Source of the DNA: Escherichia phage EI-SP-GF | Sequence record: OR992645.1 | Strand: one strand, 5' to 3' | DNA length: 64,000 nucleotides | In this document: positions 2,276 through 33,181 of the stretch, piece by piece | How positions within the stretch are numbered: the stretch's first letter is position 1 | How the letters are laid out: every line of letters starts with the position of its first letter | Position numbers and translations under genes: made by a program | The notes under the pieces: model-generated | Database searches by the model: none | What the model saw: the letters and a program-made list of their open reading frames with translations, nothing else | Told to the model about the DNA's origin: nothing

Positions 2276-2626
2276 TTACTGCAACAGTTTTTCAATAGCC
2301 GCTTCCATGCTGCTTGCAACAGCCTGAACTCGGATATTCATCTCTTCTTGGCGGATCAGCTCCTTAAGCTCTTTAACGGTGAATTCTTTAGAGAAACCTT
2401 CCACCATAATCTTGTGCAAGGCTTCTTGCGTGTCTACTTGCAAGAACTTTTCCAGTTTGTTGGCAGAGGCCTCTAAATCGGCCCGAATACGTGGGTCATC
2501 TGTTCGGTTCAGCATTAGGCGTAAGCCATCAAGATTAGTAGAAATAGCGTCTGCATGTTGAGTAACCAACCGTGGCAAAATGAGATCTACAAACTTACTG
2601 GCTAAATCAATACGCTCTTGTGTCAC
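2276..2626 (-). CDS. hypothetical protein (116 aa, GTG start)
   Basis: ORF track; start codon is GTG on inspection; no motif recognised. Confidence 0.35.
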   Translation of the reverse strand: MTQERIDLASKFVDLILPRLVTQHADAISTNLDGLRLMLNRTDDPRIRADLEASANKLEKFLQVDTQEALHKIMVEGFSKEFTVKELKELIRQEEMNIRVQAVASSMEAAIEKLLQ

Positions 2627-2798
2627 TGTTGCACCCCCTCTTCATCTTCATGATATTTCTTTTCACGCTTGTGTTTTTTCTTAAGCTCAAGCGCAATCTC
2701 TTTCTTGTACGCCTTCTTCAAGGCTTTTTTAGCCATTTGGCACCTCCTCTGCTTTCATTACGATAATTATAACCAACTTACCAAAGCTTTGTCAACGA

Positions 2799-3272
2799 TT
2801 AGTCAACCTGAACCCAACTGCCTGCTACCTTTTTAAACATTCTCTGGTTATCACTGCCTCGGAATGGTTTCTTTGTTGGTAAATCTTTTACATACTTGCC
2901 ATCAATGATGATATCAGCCAGCTCAAGAACATCACTAGAGATATGCTCAAATGTGAACCCAGTATACACAAGAATAGTTTTCTTGTCACCAAACTTTTCC
3001 TTAATTCTCCTCATAAGTTTAATAATACCGGGCTCATTATACGTAGCCAAAGGCTCTCCACCAAGCAAAGAAATACCGCATATAGATTCATTGTCCAAAT
3101 CTGACAAAATTCTCTGCAAATCTTCTTCGGTGAATTCTCTTCCCTTATCTTTGGACCAAAATGCTTGATTAAAGCAACCATGACAAGCGTGTGGGCACCC
3201 AGATACCCACAAGGCCGTCCTGAGACCTGGCCCTTCGGTGTAGGATATTTCTGTGTATCCGACAATATTCAT
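2799..3272 (-). CDS. nrdG: anaerobic ribonucleotide reductase activating protein (radical SAM)
   Basis: N-terminal CPHACHGCFN cysteine motif; directly downstream of nrdD. Confidence 0.85.
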   Translation of the reverse strand: MNIVGYTEISYTEGPGLRTALWVSGCPHACHGCFNQAFWSKDKGREFTEEDLQRILSDLDNESICGISLLGGEPLATYNEPGIIKLMRRIKEKFGDKKTILVYTGFTFEHISSDVLELADIIIDGKYVKDLPTKKPFRGSDNQRMFKKVAGSWVQVD

Positions 3273-3385
3273 AAGTACTCCGCATCACATTTAGGACAAT
3301 GCCAAATAAAATCATCCAGTGCCTTGCACCAACGAAGATTGCAATGACAACCACACTTGCAAATTTTATAAATACCTGACGACAT
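3269..3385 (-). CDS. small Cys-rich zinc-ribbon-like protein (38 aa)
   Basis: Hand-translated MSSGIYKICKCGCHCNLRWCKALDDFIWHCPKCDAEYL; stop TGA overlaps nrdG ATG (ATGA); below ORF-track size cutoff. Confidence 0.35.
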   Translation of the reverse strand: MSSGIYKICKCGCHCNLRWCKALDDFIWHCPKCDAEYL

Positions 3386-3448: not shown

Positions 3449-4657
3449 TCAGCAACCACAGCTTCCGTAGTGCTTAACCCGTTCTATAACTTCCGCTTGC
3501 TTACCTTTGTTGTAAGGTCGGGAGTTTGGACTGGACAGATACCCAGATACACGTCTAATCACACTGATCGTTCCCTCTTCATGGTTTCCGCACTCTGGGC
3601 ATACAAAGCCTTTAGCTGTTGCACTGAACTCACCAGAGAATCCGCACTTAAGACATTTATCCACAGGTTGGTTAATACCAAAATACATAATGTGTTTATA
3701 CCCGAAATCGACAAGGGATTCCAAAGCATCCAGGTTGTTTTTCAGGTTAGGTGTTTCTATGTATCCAATGTTACCGCCAGAAGAGATCATAGCAAAACCT
3801 TCCTCATACTTCCACTTGTCAAAAGGTGAGCTATTGATCCACACGGGCTGGTGGAAACTGTTGGTAAGGTATTCGTGCTCGTGCTTCAACACTTCAGGAT
3901 ATTCACGATCTAGACATGTTGCAGCCTTATAGCACAAGCTCTCTGAAGGAGTGCCGTACAAGCTGAATGCCAGACCACTTTCTTTTTTGTACCGATCACA
4001 AGCGTCTTTCATGTGCTGAAGGATCCCAAGAGCTAAGGACTTGTCTCCCTCTCTGCCTAAAATCTGGCAGGTTTCATACACACCAATATATCCAATACTT
4101 ATGGAAGCATACCCGTCATAGAAGAGTTTATCAATACTCTCTTCAGGATCCAGGCGAGCAAGAGCTCCTTCACACCACATGATGGGGTTCTGCCCTGCCT
4201 TTGTTCCTTTTAGACGGTTAACCCTTACAAGGTGAGCCTCGTATGCCAGATCCAAGTACTCGTCAAGAACTGCAAAGAAATCAACACCTTCCGTTTTAGC
4301 TTTTGCCGCAATCATTGGTAGGTTAAGGCTAACAACACCTAAGTTAAATCTGCCAAGGTATTTCTCCTCTCCTGTTTCCAAGTCATTGTATTTGCTAAGA
4401 AAACTCCGGCAACCCATGCTTGTGACATTACCTTCTGTTGAACCTGTCACTTTTCTATTCAGTGGTACAGATACGAAGTCAGGATAAATCCGCTCTGCAG
4501 AGCATTCCAGAGCTAATCGTTTCAAATCATAGTTAGGATCCTCGGGGTTCATGTTGATACCCTCCTCCAGGAAGAACAGCACCTTAGGGAACACAGGTGT
4601 GATACGTTCTTCACCAAGACCCATTTTGTGGACTTTCAGGTAGTTTTTGGTAATCAT
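3449..4657 (-). CDS. nrdD: anaerobic ribonucleoside-triphosphate reductase, exon 2 (C-terminal part with glycyl-radical site)
   Basis: C-terminal CPECGN zinc site and RRVSGYL glycyl-radical motif; frame is open up to 4750 so true exon start may lie between 4657 and 4750. Confidence 0.85.
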   Translation of the reverse strand: MITKNYLKVHKMGLGEERITPVFPKVLFFLEEGINMNPEDPNYDLKRLALECSAERIYPDFVSVPLNRKVTGSTEGNVTSMGCRSFLSKYNDLETGEEKYLGRFNLGVVSLNLPMIAAKAKTEGVDFFAVLDEYLDLAYEAHLVRVNRLKGTKAGQNPIMWCEGALARLDPEESIDKLFYDGYASISIGYIGVYETCQILGREGDKSLALGILQHMKDACDRYKKESGLAFSLYGTPSESLCYKAATCLDREYPEVLKHEHEYLTNSFHQPVWINSSPFDKWKYEEGFAMISSGGNIGYIETPNLKNNLDALESLVDFGYKHIMYFGINQPVDKCLKCGFSGEFSATAKGFVCPECGNHEEGTISVIRRVSGYLSSPNSRPYNKGKQAEVIERVKHYGSCGC

Positions 4658-5508
4658 TCTACCAAAGATTGAGGTATCCAGTCCTAAACTTAATGTGATG
4701 AATGGAGTCTGCTGTCTCCTCCCCGTGTTTCCACAGGGCCAGACTATCTCTTACTCTACTTCAATAAGATAATAACCCTTTATTGTGAGATGCTTACCTT
4801 CGGCATTTCCTTCGATAGCCCTATGAACGTTACCTACGTTCAAATTTAAGGCTTTTGCACAGGCATAGAGTGAAGGATATTCACCCACCAAGGTTTTCCC
4901 TTTGTATGCCTGCACTTTCCTATAGCACTTGCCTGGACAAAGTCCTGTTCGGAAAGCATGTCTCTTATTATCTTCCGGCAAAACCCACTCTAGGTTAGAC
5001 GGATGATCATTCAATGTATTGCCATCTTTATGATTCACTTCCCAGTTTTCAGGGTCTTCTGGGACATCTGGCAAACAATACAAGGCAACAATCCTTGAGG
5101 TTTGGATTCGAATCTTTTTACCTTTGTGGTTGAAAGAGTACATATAACGGCGTTTAACATGCTTGTTACCTTTTCCATAACCTCCCCACAATATTGGGTG
5201 TAGCATTCCACGTTTTCCGTATACGTTTCCAACCTCATCAATCACATAGTTTGATTCTTCACCATTAAGAATGATCTTTTTCATAGAGCCTCTCCATTTC
5301 GAAGTTAGTATTTCAACTAACCCCTACACTACTTGGTTCAGAAATGTTTGTCAAGCATCTCTGCCTTTCGTTAGTCGTTACAACCGTTCCAACTCCTGTA
5401 AGAACTAGTCACGGGATTGGCATAGCTTTCGCCTTAGCGTTCCCCGTTAGCCGGATTTACCGACCCCTCTTATGAGGTTAGGAGAGTTTTACAACGGCCA
5501 GTTTGTTA
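4658..5508 (-). mobile_element. group I self-splicing intron interrupting nrdD, carrying an HNH homing endonuclease ORF (boundaries approximate)
   Basis: Sequence between the two nrdD ORFs; minus strand has P7-type elements AACGACTAAC (5' part) and AAGAGATAGTCTGG (3' part) matching group I R/S consensus; free-standing endonuclease ORF between them. Confidence 0.7.
4751..5284 (-). CDS. HNH homing endonuclease (intron-encoded)
   Basis: HNH motif NHKDGNTLNDHPSNLEWV in a 177-aa protein located inside the nrdD intron. Confidence 0.75.
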   Translation of the reverse strand: MKKIILNGEESNYVIDEVGNVYGKRGMLHPILWGGYGKGNKHVKRRYMYSFNHKGKKIRIQTSRIVALYCLPDVPEDPENWEVNHKDGNTLNDHPSNLEWVLPEDNKRHAFRTGLCPGKCYRKVQAYKGKTLVGEYPSLYACAKALNLNVGNVHRAIEGNAEGKHLTIKGYYLIEVE

Positions 5509-6369
5509 ACCGTTGACAGAAGTTAACGTATTGATTTGGTATAGCAAAGTTTGCATACTATCAAACACGTCTTTATCCGTCATTTGCATTGCAACAGTCT
5601 CAGCATCCGGCAACCAATGTTCCTGACAAAATTTAAGATTCTTCTCATAGGTTGCTTCAGCATACTGCGCCAGATAATGATCAATATGGCTCATGGTCTG
5701 ACCACCATACTGAGCACTAGCTACTGCACTAGAGATTTGGCTGAGGATTGTTGTTGCAACCCCTATTGACTTCGGCTTACTGACATGGGCGTTGCCAATG
5801 TTGAATCCGTTTTCCAGCATATCCGGATAATTCACCAAACAGCAGTTTGTTAACGGACTGATCAGATAGTCAAGATCATGCACATGGATGAATCCCTTGT
5901 TGTGCTCTTCGGAGACACGATCTGGCAGTATCTGTGTTGATGCAAGGTGTTTGCTAAGGATACCTGCAAGCAGGTCACGATGAGTATGTACATGATTAGT
6001 GGGCTTATTTGCGTTTTCTTTTGTAAATTCATCACAAGTTCGATCCAAGAAGCCACTAATATCTGCAAGCAGTTTTCCACCTGCCTCTCTGTTATTATCT
6101 CTTGTCTGTCTATACTGGATATATTCTCTGGCTGCACATTTTAAACCCATATCCATAAGAGCATCTTCAACAAGGATATGGATATTTTTTACAGAGATCG
6201 TGCACTGGTCGGTTGGTAGATTGTTGGCAACAACTTCATTAACCGCACAAGCGATCCGGTAAGCTTCTTCTTCAGTATGCCCAGACTCAAGTAAGGCGGA
6301 CTCTGCCGCCTTGATTACCTTAACTCCGTTATAGACCTCTTCTCTACCGTCCCGTTTTACAACTTTCAC
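5506..6369 (-). CDS. nrdD: anaerobic ribonucleoside-triphosphate reductase, exon 1 (N-terminal ATP-cone part)
   Basis: Starts MKVVKRDGREEVY (ATP-cone-like); ORF ends at a stop that lies at the 5' edge of the intron, exon probably ends near 5509. Confidence 0.85.
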   Translation of the reverse strand: MKVVKRDGREEVYNGVKVIKAAESALLESGHTEEEAYRIACAVNEVVANNLPTDQCTISVKNIHILVEDALMDMGLKCAAREYIQYRQTRDNNREAGGKLLADISGFLDRTCDEFTKENANKPTNHVHTHRDLLAGILSKHLASTQILPDRVSEEHNKGFIHVHDLDYLISPLTNCCLVNYPDMLENGFNIGNAHVSKPKSIGVATTILSQISSAVASAQYGGQTMSHIDHYLAQYAEATYEKNLKFCQEHWLPDAETVAMQMTDKDVFDSMQTLLYQINTLTSVNG

Positions 6370-6644
6370 TTTTTCTCTCCAAAACCATTCTTAACAAAAG
6401 AGATGAAATCGTCAGCACCACCTATGTGGACACTATCAAGGTTGCTTTCCAAGAAGATCTGAGGCAACGTTCTGGGAACAAATGGACTACACTTCTCAAT
6501 AAGCTCTTCTTTTGTGTATCCTTCACCGAGCGTCTTGTATACGAAAGGTATACCTTTGCTTGCTGCAAATTCTTTTGCTCTTACACAATGTGGGCAGTTA
6601 TCCTTACCGTAGATGATAATGAAAAAAGATTTTTCACAGCTCAT
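6366..6644 (-). CDS. glutaredoxin/thioredoxin-like redoxin
   Basis: 92 aa with CPHC active-site motif near N-terminus, between nrdB and nrdD. Confidence 0.7.
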   Translation of the reverse strand: MSCEKSFFIIIYGKDNCPHCVRAKEFAASKGIPFVYKTLGEGYTKEELIEKCSPFVPRTLPQIFLESNLDSVHIGGADDFISFVKNGFGEKK

Positions 6645-6647
6645 ATA

Positions 6648-7736
6648 TTAAAACTCCCAAATTTCTTCTTCAGCGTCATTAACAGTTGTGTTGACGCGAT
6701 AGTCGGTGTTAGACATTTCCTGGTTAGCCGTCTGTTGCAGTGAAGGTTTCATCCACACCTGCATAAACGGTAACGGGTCTTTTGTTGGCGGCACAAAGTC
6801 TTTGTCGATGTTATAGTAATCATAAATCGGTGAACAGTTATAGTCAACCCATTCTTTAAGTAATGGTGAGTTAAGCCCTATAATCGCCCTTCCTTCGCTG
6901 AAAATATAGTCACTCCAACCGTACTCCTTGATCCGTACTTCGTCAAGAATCTCTTTTAACTCTCCCTTAATCTCAAGAAAGCTTTGCTCCCATGTAGGAT
7001 CATCAAGCAGGATATCGATGATAGCAAAATCACCTTTCGAATGCAGCATCTCATCAAGCATAATTTTTTGAACGAGTTGTGCAACTTGAACAAAAATACC
7101 TTGCTCAGCTACTGCGAACGTACATGCAAAACTTGCAATAAACTCAATACTCTCTAGAGCTAAAAGTGCAAAAAGTGCTCTAAGGATACATTTCCGTACA
7201 ACATCTTCTTCAACACTGGAAGGATCCAGTCGGTATTTTGCACCAATAACCTCAAGCTCTTGCATATATTTGACAATAACTCCAGACCTGCTTAGCACGT
7301 TCTGGTTTTCCTGAATCTCTTCTATAATCTCACGAGCATTAGGAAGGCATTGTCTAACAATCTCTGAGTAAGTTAGTGCATGAAGAACCTCGATCTCAGA
7401 CTGCTTCATCAACAAGGTGAAAAGTTCACTATTAGTGATAAATGGTGAAAACAGACAAATGATAGATCTTGCTGCAACACTGTCTGCCTCCCATTGCCAC
7501 ATCAGTGTCTGCACCATTACATCGTAAGTTGACTTTGAGCATGTTACGAAATCCGAAATAGACTGTGACAAATCTACTTCGTCCTCTGCCCAATCTTGTT
7601 CTTTTTGTTTTTTGTATAGTTCAAACAGCTGTGGGTACTTTTTGTTAATAGAGTCGTACATCCCCATCTGCTGTCCTAAAAACAGCGGATAATCACCAGT
7701 TTTATGAGCAGTGTTCTCAGTATTAAATACAGCCAT
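6648..7736 (-). CDS. nrdB: ribonucleotide reductase class Ia small subunit
   Basis: Position next to nrdA and size (362 aa from MAVFNTEN) fit the class Ia small subunit; no signature motif was checked. Start moved from ORF-track 7826 to ATG at 7736 (GAGG RBS 8 nt upstream), since 7826 would overlap nrdA. Confidence 0.85.
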   Translation of the reverse strand: MAVFNTENTAHKTGDYPLFLGQQMGMYDSINKKYPQLFELYKKQKEQDWAEDEVDLSQSISDFVTCSKSTYDVMVQTLMWQWEADSVAARSIICLFSPFITNSELFTLLMKQSEIEVLHALTYSEIVRQCLPNAREIIEEIQENQNVLSRSGVIVKYMQELEVIGAKYRLDPSSVEEDVVRKCILRALFALLALESIEFIASFACTFAVAEQGIFVQVAQLVQKIMLDEMLHSKGDFAIIDILLDDPTWEQSFLEIKGELKEILDEVRIKEYGWSDYIFSEGRAIIGLNSPLLKEWVDYNCSPIYDYYNIDKDFVPPTKDPLPFMQVWMKPSLQQTANQEMSNTDYRVNTTVNDAEEEIWEF

Positions 7737-7776
7737 TATTCTACCTCTAAAATGGGGCCGAAGCCCCTTTTTTAAA

Positions 7777-10092
7777 TTACAGTGCACAACTTTCGCAATA
7801 CGGATCTTCAACTGAACTATCTGCAATCAAAGGATAGTTCTTTCTGGTTTCATCTTCAGCCTGTTTCTTCGCGTGAAGCTCCTCTGTCAAAGAGTCACCA
7901 GCACCAACCCGAGAGTTTAAGTAATACCATGTCTTCATCCCGAATTTAGTAGCACGGATAAGATACCCAAGCTGCTCCTTCATTGAAATTTTACCATCTT
8001 TCAACTTGGTGTAATCAATATATAGGTCAGCACTGATTGCCTGTCCTGTGAATTTTTGAATCACAGCATACATATCAATCATGTCGTTAGTATCAACGTC
8101 CCAAGCTGAGGTATAATACTCTTTCAGTTCATCATATTCAGGAACGATAAACAGCACCTGCCCTTGTGGTGACTTTTTAAAGATAATGTGTTCACGGACA
8201 GGATAAACCCCGTTAGTGGTGTTTGTTGCCAGCGAAGAGCTTTCATTAGGCATATATGCTTCAAGAACGCTATTACGTAGCCCACCATTTTCAATGATTT
8301 CTTTACGTAACCCTTCCCAATCCTGCTTAAGAGAAGGATCTTTCACCACACTATCGACCTCTTTGTTATAAGTGTCGATTGGTAACCAACCCTCTGGGTA
8401 TTTTGTTTTATGCATCCACTCGCAGACACCGCGCTCTTTTGCCAATCGTAAACTTGCCTTATGCAAGCTGTAGCTGTGGAGCTCTGCAAGATCGTGAACA
8501 AGCTGTTTACTTTCAGGAGACCCGTAAGCAACCTTGTGGCTGGCAATAAAATGTGCAACATTGGTAAGGCCAACCCCGATGGATCTGCGTTTTTTAACAG
8601 TGCTCTCCATATTTTCATACGGATATGTCATGATTTCCATAACATTGTCAATCATAAGCACAGTGTAGTATGCAACATCCTCATACTCCTCCGGGGTAAC
8701 CCTTCCGGCTACAAGAGATGACAGGAAGCACAATGCAACTTCGCCATCATCAACATCGTACTTGAAGATATTACGCATATCTGAATAGCCTTTTGTCGGG
8801 AGGGCTATTTCTGCACACAGGTTACTTGAATAGATTACATCTTTAAAAGGTGTATGTCTATTCATCTCATCTGTCCAGTATACGTACAGCCTTCCAACCT
8901 CGGTACGCTGCGTGATCAGCTCAACAGCAAGATCTCTAGCTCGGATCCATGTTTTAGGAATACTGTCATCTTTAGCGATACGATCAACCTCTGCATCAAA
9001 CTCCTCCATAGACATGGTGAAGATACCCTCATGCAGTTGAGGCGCGTGCTTATAAGAAACAAGCATCCAATCTAAATTCTTAGCCACACGGTTGATAAAC
9101 GACCTATTAATACCTATAGAGTAGTCCATGGTGTTGATTCTTTTTGAAGCAACAGTCATAGGGTTTCTCAAACGGATTAGCTCATCAATCTGCGGGTCCA
9201 GTGCAAGGAATGATACTGTTGCAGAACCGCCACGTGATTGTTGTCTGTTCTCCTTAACCCCAGCATCAATACCTCGATAATATGGAATCTTGCCCATATG
9301 TTTAATAGTGTTACCACGAACACCATCACCTGCAGATCTTGATGATAAATAGTAGCCAATACCTGCTTGGTTAACCGTCATTGTGTATGCAACTTCACGT
9401 GCCACACCAATAGATTTTGCTGTATCGTCAGCTTTTATTACACAACAAGATGCATACCCTGTCTTGCCTGTGCGCAGCCCGTTTAAGTACGGTGTCGGGG
9501 CATTGATCTTTAAGTCGGACAGATAAGTGTATAATTTTACAACATCGTTGATACGACGTTCTTTCGACATATTCTTCATGACAGCCATTGCTATCCCCAT
9601 AAACATCATCTGGGGAGATTCAAACAAGGTGTCTTTAAGAGTATCCTTGATCCCGTATTTGTCGCGAAACTGTTTAAGGACTGCATAGCCATAACCGAGA
9701 TCTTTACTGTGGTCAATAACAGCGTCTAAAGTGTTTAGCTCGGTAAAGCTATAACCCATATCCTCCCAATACCCTTTCTCAACCATGGTATTGTAAAATG
9801 ATGGTAAGGAAGGGATCTTTGTAAACCCTCCAAAAGCCTCTTTATAAATCTGACCAATAAGAACACGACCAGCCATACGGGAATGTGCTTCGTCTTTACG
9901 GCTAACACAGGAGTCTATAATAGCTTGGTTAACTTCTTTGGTTGTGCATCCATCATACAGCCGTTTGTATGCATCAAGTGCAATATGTGACCAATTGCCG
10001 TTACCGTCGTCACCGAAAATAGCTGCCTTATTTAAACGTTCCGGATCGAATGCTACTTCACATCCGTTGCTTTTAATTACCTTGGTGATCAA
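7777..10092 (-). CDS. nrdA: ribonucleotide reductase class Ia large subunit
   Basis: 771 aa, N-terminal ATP-cone (MITKVIKSNGCEVAFD), active-site NLCAEIALP, C-terminal CESCAL. Confidence 0.9.
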   Translation of the reverse strand: MITKVIKSNGCEVAFDPERLNKAAIFGDDGNGNWSHIALDAYKRLYDGCTTKEVNQAIIDSCVSRKDEAHSRMAGRVLIGQIYKEAFGGFTKIPSLPSFYNTMVEKGYWEDMGYSFTELNTLDAVIDHSKDLGYGYAVLKQFRDKYGIKDTLKDTLFESPQMMFMGIAMAVMKNMSKERRINDVVKLYTYLSDLKINAPTPYLNGLRTGKTGYASCCVIKADDTAKSIGVAREVAYTMTVNQAGIGYYLSSRSAGDGVRGNTIKHMGKIPYYRGIDAGVKENRQQSRGGSATVSFLALDPQIDELIRLRNPMTVASKRINTMDYSIGINRSFINRVAKNLDWMLVSYKHAPQLHEGIFTMSMEEFDAEVDRIAKDDSIPKTWIRARDLAVELITQRTEVGRLYVYWTDEMNRHTPFKDVIYSSNLCAEIALPTKGYSDMRNIFKYDVDDGEVALCFLSSLVAGRVTPEEYEDVAYYTVLMIDNVMEIMTYPYENMESTVKKRRSIGVGLTNVAHFIASHKVAYGSPESKQLVHDLAELHSYSLHKASLRLAKERGVCEWMHKTKYPEGWLPIDTYNKEVDSVVKDPSLKQDWEGLRKEIIENGGLRNSVLEAYMPNESSSLATNTTNGVYPVREHIIFKKSPQGQVLFIVPEYDELKEYYTSAWDVDTNDMIDMYAVIQKFTGQAISADLYIDYTKLKDGKISMKEQLGYLIRATKFGMKTWYYLNSRVGAGDSLTEELHAKKQAEDETRKNYPLIADSSVEDPYCESCAL

Positions 10093-29272: not shown

Positions 29273-29344
29273 GCCCTGTTAGCTTAGTGGATAAAGCAGC
29301 GGCCTTCTAAGCCGTTGACACTGGTTCGAGTCCAGTACGGGGTG
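29273..29344 (+). tRNA. tRNA-Arg(TCT)
   Basis: Hand-folded cloverleaf: acceptor GCCCTGT/ACGGGGT, D-stem GCTT/AAGC, anticodon loop CTTCTAA, T-loop TTCGAGT, encoded CCA. Confidence 0.8.
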
Positions 29345-29477
29345 CCAAGTTCTTTTTAATGTAGCTTACTTTAGCAGAGTAAATCTTCGGCAAGTGGCGG
29401 TAACCACTTTACCGATACCTCATAGTTAGTGGTTAGAACACTAGCTATTTTAAAAAGAATTTAAATATTAGTATTTA

Positions 29478-29562
29478 GGTGAGTTAATTCCGTAGGGGTA
29501 GCGGGGCAGACTGTAAATCTGTTATCATTGCGATTCGGGTGGTTCGACTCCATCACTCACCA
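29478..29562 (+). tRNA. tRNA-Tyr(GTA), type II with long variable arm
   Basis: Acceptor GGTGAGT/ACTCACC, anticodon loop CTGTAAA, T-loop TTCGACT, CCA encoded. Confidence 0.75.
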
Positions 29563-29680
29563 CCAAATTTATATTTTTAAATGCATAAATCATACAGATA
29601 ATGGCATTGATATTTATCGTCGTTTATACTAGTCACTAACTGCTCGAAAATCAGTGTCATTATCAGTATTGTTTATAAAA

Positions 29681-29768
29681 GAGGGTAGGGAGCAATGGTG
29701 CTCAAGCGGTCTTGAAAACCGTCCCGTTGAGGATGACTCGATGATGGTTCGATTCCATTATCCTCTGC
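29681..29768 (+). tRNA. tRNA-Ser(TGA), type II
   Basis: Acceptor AGAGGGT/ATCCTCT, anticodon loop CTTGAAA, long variable arm, T-loop TTCGATT, CCA encoded. Confidence 0.7.
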
Positions 29769-29868
29769 CATATTGTTGACCTTGTAATTAAGCGAAAGCC
29801 GGAAGCAGAACCGGATTATCAAATGTTACAGTCGTCATCGCCGACTAGCAACATGGTCAACATACTGA

Positions 29869-29965
29869 GCTAGGTAAGCCCTTTGGCAAGGGCGAGGATT
29901 TTTAATCCTGAAAATAGACGAGGTAGTCGTTGAATACATAGATGGTTCGATTCCATCACCTAGCA
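29869..29965 (+). pseudogene. aberrant tRNA-like element (possible degenerate tRNA-Lys(TTT)-like)
   Basis: Canonical acceptor GCTAGGT/ACCTAGC, D-arm GCCC/GGGC and T-arm GATGG-TTCGATT-CCATC, but 97 nt long with about 30 nt between anticodon-like hairpin and T-arm. Confidence 0.35.
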
Positions 29966-29971
29966 CCTTTT

Positions 29972-30044
29972 GCTGATGTAGCACAATTGGCAGTGCAATT
30001 GATTTGTAATCAATAGGTTGCAGGTTCAAGTCCTGCCATCAGCA
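29972..30044 (+). tRNA. tRNA-Thr(TGT)
   Basis: Complete 73-nt cloverleaf: acceptor GCTGATG/CATCAGC, anticodon stem ATTGA/TCAAT with loop TTTGTAA, T-loop TTCAAGT, CCA encoded. Confidence 0.85.
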
Positions 30045-30048
30045 CCAT

Positions 30049-30120
30049 GGCCCTGTAGCTGGAAGGTTCAAGCAAGCGACTCATAATCGCCAGACGGTGG
30101 TTCAATTCCACCCAGGGCCA
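30049..30120 (+). tRNA. tRNA-Met(CAT) (elongator or Ile2-type)
   Basis: Acceptor GGCCCTG/CAGGGCC, anticodon loop CTCATAA, T-arm GGTGG-TTCAATT-CCACC; starts 1 nt after tRNA-Thr CCA. Confidence 0.8.
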
Positions 30121-30134
30121 CCAAATAATAAATA

Positions 30135-30208
30135 CTCCGCGTAGCTCAGCTTGGTAGAGCGCCTGATTTGGGATCAGGAGGTCGAGTGTTCGAATCACTC
30201 CGTGGAGA
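30135..30208 (+). tRNA. tRNA-Pro(TGG)
   Basis: Acceptor CTCCGCG/CGTGGAG (C1-G72 as in bacterial tRNA-Pro), D-arm AGCTCAGCTTGGTAGAGC, anticodon loop TTTGGGA, T-loop TTCGAAT. Confidence 0.85.
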
Positions 30209-31031: not shown

Positions 31032-31315
31032 GAGTTACTGCACTGGTTGTTTTGTGCTTGTTATTGTGTGGGTGTGCAACCAGCGTTGAGAGAGAATACA
31101 AGATTGACCCTCCGGATGTAGGAAGGTTGATTGTTAAACCTCCCGAGGGTGCTATGAAACCACCTGCTAAAGCTATCCCTTTGAAGAAAGGTGCGCCAGA
31201 TGCGGTGAATTCTGGCATTATGAGGGATAATAACCTGTCTTGTAGTAATGATAGAGCTAAATTAATCATTTTGCAAGACTATATTAGAACACTGTTTCCA
31301 AAGGAGAGAGGTTAA
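31028..31315 (+). CDS. o-spanin (Rz1-like outer-membrane lipoprotein)
   Basis: Signal peptide with lipobox LLLCGC, Pro-rich mature part. Confidence 0.65.
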   Translation: MRVTALVVLCLLLCGCATSVEREYKIDPPDVGRLIVKPPEGAMKPPAKAIPLKKGAPDAVNSGIMRDNNLSCSNDRAKLIILQDYIRTLFPKERG

Positions 31316-31740
31316 TGTCTAAGATTTACGGACCGTGTTCTGAAAAGCAGAAGATGATCCTGGAAAATGATGCAGATATTTTGGTAATTGGCGGGGCTGC
31401 AGGATCTGGCAAGTCATTCCTCTTGCAGCTAATGCCGCTTAAAATTATTGATGACCCGCACAGCTCTGTGGTTATGTTCCGAAGAACAACCCCACAGTTG
31501 GAAGGTGAGGGGGGACTATGGCCTAAAGCAGTAGCTATTTATAGTGATCTGCCAGAAAACATTAAGCCAAAGTTTAGAGAGAAGGATCATAAGTTCATTT
31601 TTCCACGGTTTGATCCGAGCACTGGCAAGTGGGACAGGAGCAAAAAGGGAGCTGTTGTAAAATACTGCCACATGGAATATGTCCAAGATAAGCTTAACCA
31701 TCAGGGTTTGGAATACACCATGGTTTGCTTCGATGAGGGT
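31315..31740 (+). CDS. terminase large subunit, exon 1 (ATPase Walker A and B)
   Basis: Walker A GGAAGSGKS and Walker B MVCFDEG; ORF stops immediately after Walker B at the intron edge. Confidence 0.8.
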
Positions 31741-32092
31741 TAATTTGTAGCTCTCGTAAAACCTCCCTAATTGCGGGGAAATCTTTATTATTGACACCAC
31801 CAACCTGTCATGGTAACATAATAGAGGCTTCGAAGAGAGATCGAAGGTATGGTAACAGTGTGTTAATTTAGATAATCCGCAGCGAAGCATCCGAGAGGAT
31901 GAACGTTCAACGACTAGTCGAAAGACGTAGAATCAAGCGATTCGAAACGGGAGGGTAAGCGGTTGTTGTCGCTTATAAGATATAGTCTGGTCTGCATGGA
32001 GACATGCAGCTGCCTGAAAATGGCGGGGCAAGACTAGCGACCTTGCCCGAACATGAACGACACAATTCGAATGGGAGCAGATAGACTATCTG
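31741..32092 (+). ncRNA. group I intron (ORF-less) interrupting terminase large subunit; 3' boundary approximate (32057-32092)
   Basis: Canonical P/Q/R/S elements: AATTGCGGGGAAA (31769-31781), AATCCGCAGC (31874-31883), GTTCAACGACTAGTCG (31905-31920), AAGATATAGTCTGG (31977-31990); exon 1 ends with U. Confidence 0.7.
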
Positions 32093-33181
32093 ATGTCTCG
32101 TCTGCGATCTCAGTCAAAGTATCCATCAAGAATGGTTATCAGCTGTAACCCCGATTCAGAACACATGCTTGCCAAACTGGTTAGATGGTGGTTGGACGAT
32201 GAAGGGTATCCAGATCCGGAGAAATGCGGTAAGAAAAGATATTTTATCCGACGCGACGGTGAATTTATCTGGGGAGACTCTAAAGAAGAGTTGATAGAGA
32301 AATACACCACGGTTAACGGACTTGGCGTAGAGATCAAGCCAAGACCGTTGTCATTCTCGTTCATAGGCGCAACAATATTCGATAATCCTGTCTGTTTGAG
32401 AGACAACCCAGAATACCTTGCTTTCCTCGAAGGTCTACCAGAGCTGGAAAAAGCTCAGCTTCTCCATGGTAACTGGTTTGCAAAGCCTGAGGGTGCAAAC
32501 TATTTTCAAAGATCTTTCCTTCGTGATGCCGATAGAGTACCTCTTGGGTCAGTATCTTGCAGGGCATGGGATAAGGCAGGAACCGAGAGAACTTCCGGTA
32601 ATAAATTTCCTGACTTTACTGCCAGTATTAAGGTAAGTAAAGATAGCGACGGCTTTTATTACCTGTCCGGTGATTATTGTCCTGAGAACGTGGATGACGG
32701 GAGGTATTCCACAGGTCTGGAAGGCAAGTTCTGTAAAAAGGCTGGTGAACGAGATGTGATCATCAGGAAACAGGCGCAGTTCGATGGTGATGATTGCATA
32801 ATCGTCTTCTCTGTGGACCCAGGGCAGGCAGGTAAGAGTGAGTTCTTAACCTCCTCCAGATCCTTGCTTGCCGAAGGGTTCAGGGTTGAAGAAGACCCAA
32901 TGCCTTCCAACAAGTCTAAACTGACAAGGTTCTCACCTTTTGCCAATCTTGCCCAACAAGGAATGGTGAGGATTGTAAAATCCAGTTTCCATCCTGATAC
33001 TCTGGAAGCATTTCTGACTGAACTTGAAAAATTCAACGGGGAAAGATCAACATTTAACAGAAAAGACGACTGGGCCGACTGTGTAGCTTCTGCGATTAAT
33101 TTCCTAGAGAAAGAGGAGGTAGCACTTCCTTGTGTGATTCCATCAATCTCATCACCTTCTATGTTCAAGCGTTTTATCTAA
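32093..33181 (+). CDS. terminase large subunit, exon 2 (nuclease domain)
   Basis: Continues terminase after the intron in a different frame; frame open from 32057, so exon may start up to 36 nt upstream of ATG 32093. Confidence 0.75.
   Translation: MSRLRSQSKYPSRMVISCNPDSEHMLAKLVRWWLDDEGYPDPEKCGKKRYFIRRDGEFIWGDSKEELIEKYTTVNGLGVEIKPRPLSFSFIGATIFDNPVCLRDNPEYLAFLEGLPELEKAQLLHGNWFAKPEGANYFQRSFLRDADRVPLGSVSCRAWDKAGTERTSGNKFPDFTASIKVSKDSDGFYYLSGDYCPENVDDGRYSTGLEGKFCKKAGERDVIIRKQAQFDGDDCIIVFSVDPGQAGKSEFLTSSRSLLAEGFRVEEDPMPSNKSKLTRFSPFANLAQQGMVRIVKSSFHPDTLEAFLTELEKFNGERSTFNRKDDWADCVASAINFLEKEEVALPCVIPSISSPSMFKRFI

Follow-up and report, generated by a model that had tools for sequence, protein, structure and literature searches.

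In the genome of Escherichia phage EI-SP-GF (sequence record OR992645.1), an rV5-like coliphage of the genus Vequintavirus, nrdD is found as two ORFs with a gene for an HNH endonuclease between them, and this raises the question whether the two ORFs are the exons of one gene split by a self-splicing intron or are translated as two separate proteins. The window that we analysed is a stretch of 64,000 nucleotides of this genome, and all the features named below lie on its minus strand. The gene order on that strand is nrdB (6648-7826), a glutaredoxin gene (6366-6644), nrdD, a small Cys-rich ORF (3269-3385) and nrdG (2799-3272), and the 3.4-kb region around nrdD has matches of at least 90% identity in 120 phage records, nearly all of them Vequintavirinae. 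The N-terminal NrdD ORF (5506-6369) contains an ATP-cone and positions 1-154 of the Pfam NRDD profile, and the C-terminal ORF (3449-4657) positions 180-562 of the same profile together with Gly_radical. An earlier note on this DNA, made from the sequence alone, had proposed that a group I intron splits the gene, and in this the ribozyme core, the allele of the intron-less phage ECP26 and the restored reading frame all agree with it. The stretch 5508..4712 is very probably a mobile intron of group I, of the IA2 type found in phages and similar to the sunY intron of T4, inserted in nrdD directly after the codons for ...TSVNG.

The boundaries of the intron follow from the comparison with ECP26, which has an uninterrupted nrdD of 2124 nt. 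In the alignment, window positions 6700-5510 match ECP26 at 99.9% and positions 4712-3300 at 99.6% identity, and between them the window has 797 nt more than ECP26 (5508..4712). Since precisely these 797 nt are absent from ECP26, the intron is placed at 5508..4712, and the gap between the two ORFs (4658-5505) was rejected as the intron. The earlier note was thus right about the split gene, but its boundary at 4658/4657 has to be moved, as the 3' splice site lies at 4712/4711. Exon 1 (5509..6369), the end of which was placed by the alignment with the ECP26 allele together with the ORF and the Pfam matches, has 287 codons with the ATP-cone and the N-terminal part of NRDD and ends with ...GTC AAC GGT, T5509 being its last base. 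The first three bases of the intron, UAA, form an in-frame stop for exon 1, and the intron ends with ...GACAG and the terminal guanosine G4712 (omega-G). Exon 2 (3449..4711) has 420 codons and a stop, starts from C4711 with CAG ACT CCA (QTP) and holds the remaining NRDD and the glycyl-radical domain. It opens 54 nt upstream of the ATG that had been taken as the start of the C-terminal part. This ATG (4657) codes for Met 306 in the interior of the joined NrdD, and the 18 codons preceding it encode QTPFITLSLGLDTSIFGR, a conserved NrdD sequence with the counterpart QTPFVTITFG... in T4 NrdD.

The corrected gene model, join(6369..5509, 4711..3449), gives a NrdD of 707 aa. The joined protein has a single continuous Pfam NRDD match over the whole profile (1-562 of 562) with 538.8 bits, against 142.6 and 358.6 bits for the separate halves, and it differs from the NrdD of ECP26 by one internal residue. 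T4 NrdD encodes the motif that spans the junction, SSNGQTPF, in one piece. The predicted ligated exon junction is GTCAACGGT|CAGACTCCA (with the exon 2 side also given as CAGACTCCATTC), and the intron-less target sequence of the ECP26 type is GTCAACGGGCAAACCCCATTC.

The R- and S-like elements that had been noticed on the minus strand are indeed there, GTAACGACTA at 5381-5372 and AAGAGATAGTC at 4752-4742. Nowhere else in the 64 kb of the window are the motifs of R, S and P4 found together, which excludes a chance match. When the 14 proposed helices were written out, every pair was either Watson-Crick or G·U, and the P3-P4-P5-P6-P7-P3'-P8-P7'-P9 core, including the P3/P7 pseudoknot, was found with support from covariation. 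The guide region for P1 and P10 lies at 5492..5515. In P1 all seven bases of the exon sequence CAACGGU (5515-5509) are paired to GCCGUUG (5498-5492) of the internal guide, with U5509·G at the 5' splice site, and in P10 the guide CUG (5501-5499) forms three out of three pairs with the CAG (4711-4709) of exon 2. The 5' strand of P3, CUCUCC (5481..5486, intron positions 23-28), pairs with GGAGAG at 5295-5290 and is followed by two extra hairpins between P3 and J3/4 (5449..5477; intron 32-43 and 44-60). The stretch 5389..5446 comprises P4-P5-P5a-P4' with a GAAA loop on P5a (5446-5412) and P6 (5408-5389), the pairs of which were checked. The P4/P5 motif is common to 12 viral contigs, and a partial match to the Rfam model RF00028 covers the P4-P7 part at 5371-5447.

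Next come J6/7 and the 5' strand of P7, the R element GUAACGACUA, at 5372..5381. The stretch 5301..5365, between P7 and P3', holds P7.1 (5365-5335) and P7.2 (5324-5301), extra helices that are typical of subgroup IA; they correspond to intron positions 144-174 and 185-208 and have GUAGGG...CGAAA flanks as in T4 sunY. P3' (GGAGAG, 5295-5290) and the 5' strand of P8 (GCUCUAU, 5289-5283) are directly adjacent at 5283..5295. On the other side of the HNH ORF, the stretch 4721..4759 contains the 3' strand of P8 (GUAGAGU, 4759-4753), J8/7 and the 3' strand of P7, that is the S element AAGAGAUAGUC (4752-4742), and the P9 hairpin (4738-4721) with a GAAA loop. The nrdD intron has the complete sunY-like architecture of an IA2 group I intron, with P1 containing the U·G pair, P3-P9, P7.1/P7.2, P10 and the terminal G.

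The structure can be compared with that of a close relative, as 14 other Vequintavirus records, for example Shigella phage CM1, carry an ORF-less intron of 257 nt at the same site in nrdD. Between the window intron and that of CM1, six pairs are changed on both sides and still paired (one each in P1, P3 and P9, and three in P8), the change in P1 being C-G to A-U in CM1. Nine further pairs are changed on one side and still paired, and two are broken, both of them in CM1 (P6 and P10). Compensatory change is seen in P7 as well, where GAGUA...UACUC replaces GACUA...UAGUC in one relative (L014). We studied P3 in nine sequence types by extracting the strands explicitly and calculating their duplex energies. 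The cognate strands had a mean energy of -7.8 kcal/mol and the non-cognate ones -4.2, the cognate total was reached in 6 of 100,000 random re-pairings, and the cognate partner ranked first in six of the nine types. The strands themselves are almost wholly divergent among the types: CUCUCC/GGAGAG, CUCUGC/GCAGGG, AAUGUU/AGCAUU, GAGCGC/GCGCUC, ACGCAUU/GGUGCGU, CUAUGU/GCAUAG and CCGAUU/GGUUGG, among others. Rfam aligns another P3 in CM1, between the strand just before P4 and GCAGGG, which we rejected because of its mismatches and because it has no counterpart in the window; the CUCU(C/G)C strand that precedes the two hairpins forms a perfect helix and shows covariation, which supports our choice. 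A MAFFT alignment of the ORF-trimmed cores was set aside, as the variable helices fell out of register.

The ORF inside the intron (4751..5284) encodes a protein of 177 aa similar to I-HmuI, in the position of an intron-encoded HNH homing endonuclease. The earlier note had seen this ORF between the R and S elements, and we can place it precisely in the loop of P8; its description as free-standing falls away, as the ORF lies within the intron. The protein matches Pfam HNH_3 with 29.3 bits (cut-off 24.8), and its HNH catalytic (His-Me finger) block, NHKDGN...N...NL...N, aligns with that of I-HmuI. Residues 8-160 align with residues 8-159 of I-HmuI (PDB 1U3E) with about 25% identity (E=2.7e-4), and the weak match to PF22083, the NUMOD-like DNA-binding module that I-HmuI has at its C-terminus, reaches 18.4 bits, which is under the Pfam cut-off of 27. 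The ORF was assigned to phrog_59, the commonest intron passenger in Bastillevirinae (PMC11878797). The protein is 98.9-100% identical in 27 Vequintavirus records and intact in all carriers. Its next-best phage matches, mostly HNH genes in phages of Gram-positive hosts, have at most 50% identity over partial alignments and about 32% over the full length. The codon changes in the gene are mostly synonymous, 13 against 2 non-synonymous in FV3 and 3 against 0 in nomo, which argues that the gene is selected for its function now or has been recently.

The ORF and the ribozyme share sequence at both ends of the gene. The AUG is inside the 5' strand of P8. At the other end, the last base of the P8 3' strand (GUAGAGU) is the U of the UAA stop, and the stop continues into J8/7. 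P3' likely doubles as the Shine-Dalgarno sequence of the ORF (GGAGAGG), and a ribosome-binding site there could interfere with folding. The promoter scan for the ORF gave no sites. A sigma-70 candidate picked by eye in the loop of P7.1 (TTGACA-17 nt-TAGTGT) failed the same scan.

The closest well-known counterpart of this intron is found in the same gene of T4 and in the same conserved motif (...NTL.S.NG QTPF...). The T4 nrdD (sunY) intron has been shown experimentally to be self-splicing. The two introns share, in order, the lack of P2, G-UAAAA with the 5' strand of P3, P4-P5-P6, ACGACUA (P7), P7.1, P7.2 (GUAGGG...CGAAA), P3', P8, AAGA(U/G)AUAGUCU and the GAAA loop of P9, and both of them begin with UAAC, which gives a stop at once in frame after exon 1. 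In contrast, the T4 intron (1033 nt) splits a Tyr codon in AYE-Y-EVNTLFSSNG QTPF, whereas the window intron follows NG (...TSVNG), 32 nt further downstream. As the earlier note had held, the family of the endonuclease and the position of its ORF also differ: T4 has the GIY-YIG enzyme I-TevII at intron positions 236-1012, after the S element and P9, and the window has an HNH enzyme in the P8 loop. In addition, the two hairpins between P3 and J3/4 are absent in T4 sunY, and the T4 intron scores 105 bits with RF00028 against 24-30 bits for the subfamily of the window intron. The introns of T4 and of the window are related in ribozyme type, but they are different elements at different sites. Homing elements tend to target conserved parts of ribonucleotide reductase genes, and it fits this preference that T4 and rV5-like phages have distinct introns of the sunY-like kind in one and the same NrdD motif, at a distance of 32 nt.

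The endonuclease itself is best compared with I-HmuI, which is likewise an HNH enzyme encoded in an IA-type phage intron, with a similar length (174 aa against 177), apparently the same domain order and the same phrog_59. The differences are the low sequence identity noted above, the host gene, which is nrdD and not DNA polymerase, and the host, which is here Gram-negative. For the window enzyme, nicking activity and strand choice are predicted features.

We also asked what the standard model makes of the intron. At the gathering threshold of RF00028, 50 bits, no intron was called at the nrdD locus, and only the intron in terL was found. The group I covariance-model search that had been suggested as a check gave, with permissive settings, one partial match to RF00028 on either side of the ORF, with 24.1 bits for the 3' part (J8/7, P7', P9; E about 1e-3) and 11.3 bits for the P4-P7 part, the hit being split since the 534-nt ORF interrupts the model; neither reached the gathering threshold. 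The ORF-less form of CM1 matches over its full length, but with 29.3 bits (E=1.8e-5), and ORF-less members of the subfamily in general reach 27-30 bits, far from the 105 of T4 sunY. The low score is thus common to the subfamily and no sign of a defective copy at nrdD. The missing bits go along with the ORF in P8 and with the pair of additional hairpins that separates P3 from P4. These two small hairpins directly precede (C)UA-ACGGGG in every subfamily member and have no equivalent in T4 sunY, and the two-hairpin module was far more stable than shuffled sequence, with z values of about -3.3 to -3.7, where both hairpins were covered (RNAfold, nine sequence types). The yeast mitochondrial intron aI5beta is an earlier example of an insertion between P3 and P4 (PMC2396411), and a survey from 2025 notes that in phage introns the models of Rfam and GISSD often recover no more than part of the core around loops that bear an endonuclease (PMC11878797).

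A pattern search with P4-P5-P4' gave 12 viral metagenome contigs, and these as well as Bacillus phage S4-2, which was found separately, all have the same layout. The host genes of the distant relatives are thyX-like, gyrB-like, DNA-polymerase and others, and none of these ribozymes was found to interrupt nrdD except in one Vequintavirus-like contig. Tentatively, the nrdD intron could belong with at least 12 viral contigs and Bacillus phage S4-2 to an undescribed subclass of IA2, marked by the two-hairpin module and systematically under-scored (24-30 against 50 bits), but we hold this to be rather doubtful at present. If such a subclass exists, many phage introns would be overlooked, and the annotation would show the genes that contain them as split. 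The nrdD intron is in any case a tangible case of a type of phage intron missed by the standard Rfam model.

Several features of the sequence point to transfer of the intron between phages. It is 97.5-99.6% identical among phages whose exons on either side share 91-96% identity with the window, with the exception of exon 2 of 10C2 (98%). Compared to ECP26, the window exons have 7 differences in 2604 nt (exons 99.6-99.9% identical), and three of the seven are found close to the insertion site, at positions -1, +3 and +6 (GGT|CAG ACT in the window against GGG|CAA ACC). All three are synonymous and match every carrier of the ORF-containing intron that was examined, and it is to two of these changes that P1 owes its U·G pair and P10 its third pair. 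An intron that is better conserved than its flanks and a cluster of changes at -1, +3 and +6 are the footprints that would be expected if homing was recent and co-converted a very short tract. In the case of I-HmuI, the template strand is nicked 3 nt downstream of the site where its intron is inserted (PMC3428280), and by analogy a nick of that kind near the site would fit such a short tract. The phage of the window and ECP26 are near-isogenic and differ in the presence of the intron. With a co-conversion tract of only a few bases, the evidence for recent homing is unusually tidy.

Taken as a mobile intron, the element would work as follows. Transcription would run through the intron, and ribosomes translating exon 1 would stop at the UAA formed by its first three bases. 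The RNA would fold into P1 with the U·G pair, P3-P9, P7.1/P7.2 and P10, and two guanosine-dependent transesterifications would be predicted to join GGT|CAG into an mRNA for the 707-aa NrdD. As P3' and P8 would hide the ribosome-binding site and AUG of the HNH ORF, an RNA that is folded as a ribozyme should not be translated into the endonuclease at the same time, nor the reverse, which may be how expression of the ORF is regulated. In a mixed infection the endonuclease would probably nick or cut an intron-less nrdD near the site, and recombinational repair would copy the intron with a few bases of the flanking exons into the recipient.

The serious alternative is that of genes in pieces, in which the insert is not spliced and two NrdD polypeptides assemble after translation. 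In Aeromonas phage Aeh1, NrdA is reportedly made in this way as two polypeptides, its gene being split by the free-standing HNH gene mobE. There, like in the window, an RNR gene of a large myovirus is broken by an HNH gene and annotated as two CDSs, and the nrdD of the window would suit this pattern also in that the stop of the N-terminal ORF is right at the junction and that most GenBank records give two nrdD CDSs with the HNH gene in between. However, Aeh1 has no ribozyme and no splicing, whereas here the HNH ORF is flanked by a complete and covarying group I core, and the junction has no translation start: no in-frame start codon was found between the HNH stop and ATG 4657 in the 32 codons after the stop. 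A stand-alone C-terminal fragment would moreover lose the 18 conserved residues that are kept in frame, and a free-standing endonuclease gene cannot explain an ORF-less form at the same site. We therefore consider two separate polypeptides very unlikely. In Certrevirus CB7, another member of Vequintavirinae, HNH-bearing introns are found in terL, DNA polymerase and nrdA/nrdB, thus also in genes of nucleotide metabolism, and several of them splice by RT-PCR, but one HNH-associated insertion failed to splice (PMC7344957), so that association with an HNH gene alone is no guarantee of splicing. This insertion favours the alternative to some extent. CB7 has an uninterrupted nrdD and different introns at different sites, described in that paper without structural models (PMC7344957).

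Two other readings accept the intron but doubt its activity. It might splice without being actively mobile, the HNH protein being inactive or having another role and the intron being spread by ordinary recombination between co-infecting phages. The endonuclease activity is a prediction, the NUMOD-like match is below its cut-off, and the persistence of the ORF-less form in 14 records shows that the intron can be maintained without the ORF. It is difficult to reconcile this with an ORF that is intact and nearly invariant in 27 of 27 carriers with mostly synonymous changes, with an intron so much better conserved than its flanks, or with an apparent co-conversion tract that is very short and centred on the site, as would fit repair initiated by a break or nick. 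Loss of mobility is hence unlikely, although of the alternatives it is the one that we would give most weight. Even less probable than two polypeptides is a decayed, non-functional intron in an nrdD pseudogene. In the laboratory, with oxygen present, phages can do without class III RNR, and an Rfam score under the threshold could be read as a sign of decay. Yet the exons are intact and nearly identical to the intron-less gene, all core helices are intact with compensatory changes, low scores are general in the subfamily also among members that lack the ORF, and the element has been retained in 27 genomes. A mobile group I intron that is spliced from nrdD remains the reading that we prefer.

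The element is present in 27 public GenBank records at 99% identity or more. Most of these records list nrdD as two genes with an unrelated HNH gene between them. From FV3 onwards the ORF has been labelled 'HNH homing endonuclease', and in the BASEL records of MaxBurger and WalterGehring nrdD is annotated as a join of two pieces with a 'putative homing endonuclease' between them; in the BASEL paper the intron boundaries are said to have been set by comparative genomics. The genome paper of rV5 reported introns in terL only (PMC3606486), and our literature search found no paper describing the nrdD intron of rV5-like phages. The nrdD intron is a genuine but ordinary mobile element of phages, of a known kind and already partly recognised in public data. 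The present analysis contributes the corrected boundaries, the structure model backed by covariation, the footprints of homing and the membership in a subfamily that is under-scored by Rfam. The main value of these results is in annotation, as one NrdD of 707 aa replaces two partial genes, and in providing a clean natural example. All three kinds of allele, intron-less, ORF-less and ORF-containing, are found in a single phage genus, and together they offer a snapshot of the homing cycle.

In the family of sunY-like phage introns to which the nrdD intron belongs, an additional two-hairpin module lies between the 5' strand of P3 and J3/4 (window 5449-5477, minus strand), and it is found also in the related sequences L003 (Shigella phage CM1), L006 and L012-L023. 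Its position is conserved but its sequence is not, and the host genes of the introns carrying it vary, including thyX-like, gyrB-like and DNA polymerase genes. Every member of this family receives just 24-30 bits from the Rfam group I intron model RF00028. No description of a two-hairpin module between P3 and J3/4 was found in the literature for phage introns; an insertion at the same position is present in the yeast intron aI5beta (PMC2396411). Within the window, the HNH ORF and nrdD exon 2 share one reading frame on the minus strand, separated only by a TAA stop and 13 sense codons without a start codon (window 4712-4753), and this sharing of frame is probably coincidental.

The second group I intron of the window splits the large terminase gene. 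It is an ORF-less element of 279 nt (31731-32009, plus strand; RF00028, 84 bits), with the upstream piece of the gene, carrying the Walker A motif GGAAGSGKS, at 31315-31743 and the remainder at 32093-33181 (both plus strand), and it agrees with the terL intron known from rV5 (PMC3606486). A cluster of six tRNA genes was also detected by Rfam at 29273-30208 (plus strand).

The nrdD region of E. coli Vequintavirus is matched at 90% identity or more by 19 records titled "Campylobacter phage" (for example MG065655, MG065644 and MG065690), 17 of which give C. jejuni as the host. Campylobacter phage C2 (MG065655), a listed example, matches the nrdD region of the window at 94%. The same nrdD intron alleles are present in these records. 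The hosts named in them look doubtful.

In some relatives, nrdD exon 2 is interrupted by a further group I intron, which follows residue 387 of NrdD and lies about 300 nt from the start of the exon; the nrdD of the window is without this intron. It lies at 2246-2485 in the related sequence L012 (RF00028, 70.5 bits) and at about 2593-3344 in phage JEP1, where it contains its own HNH ORF. Between nrdD and nrdG, the window has a small Cys-rich, zinc-ribbon-like ORF of 38 aa (MSSGIYKICKCGCHCNLRWCKALDDFIWHCPKCDAEYL; 3269-3385, minus strand), whose counterpart in relatives is a conserved "hypothetical protein" of 117 nt. An additional gene, coding for 270-330 aa and missing from the window, is present in several relatives between nrdD and the small ORF that lies upstream of nrdG; its annotation is "putative homing endonuclease" in WalterGehring (3588-4580) and hypothetical protein in JEP1 (4377-5312) and CM1 (4164-4973). 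The stretch from nrdD to nrdG looks like a hotspot of mobile endonuclease genes.
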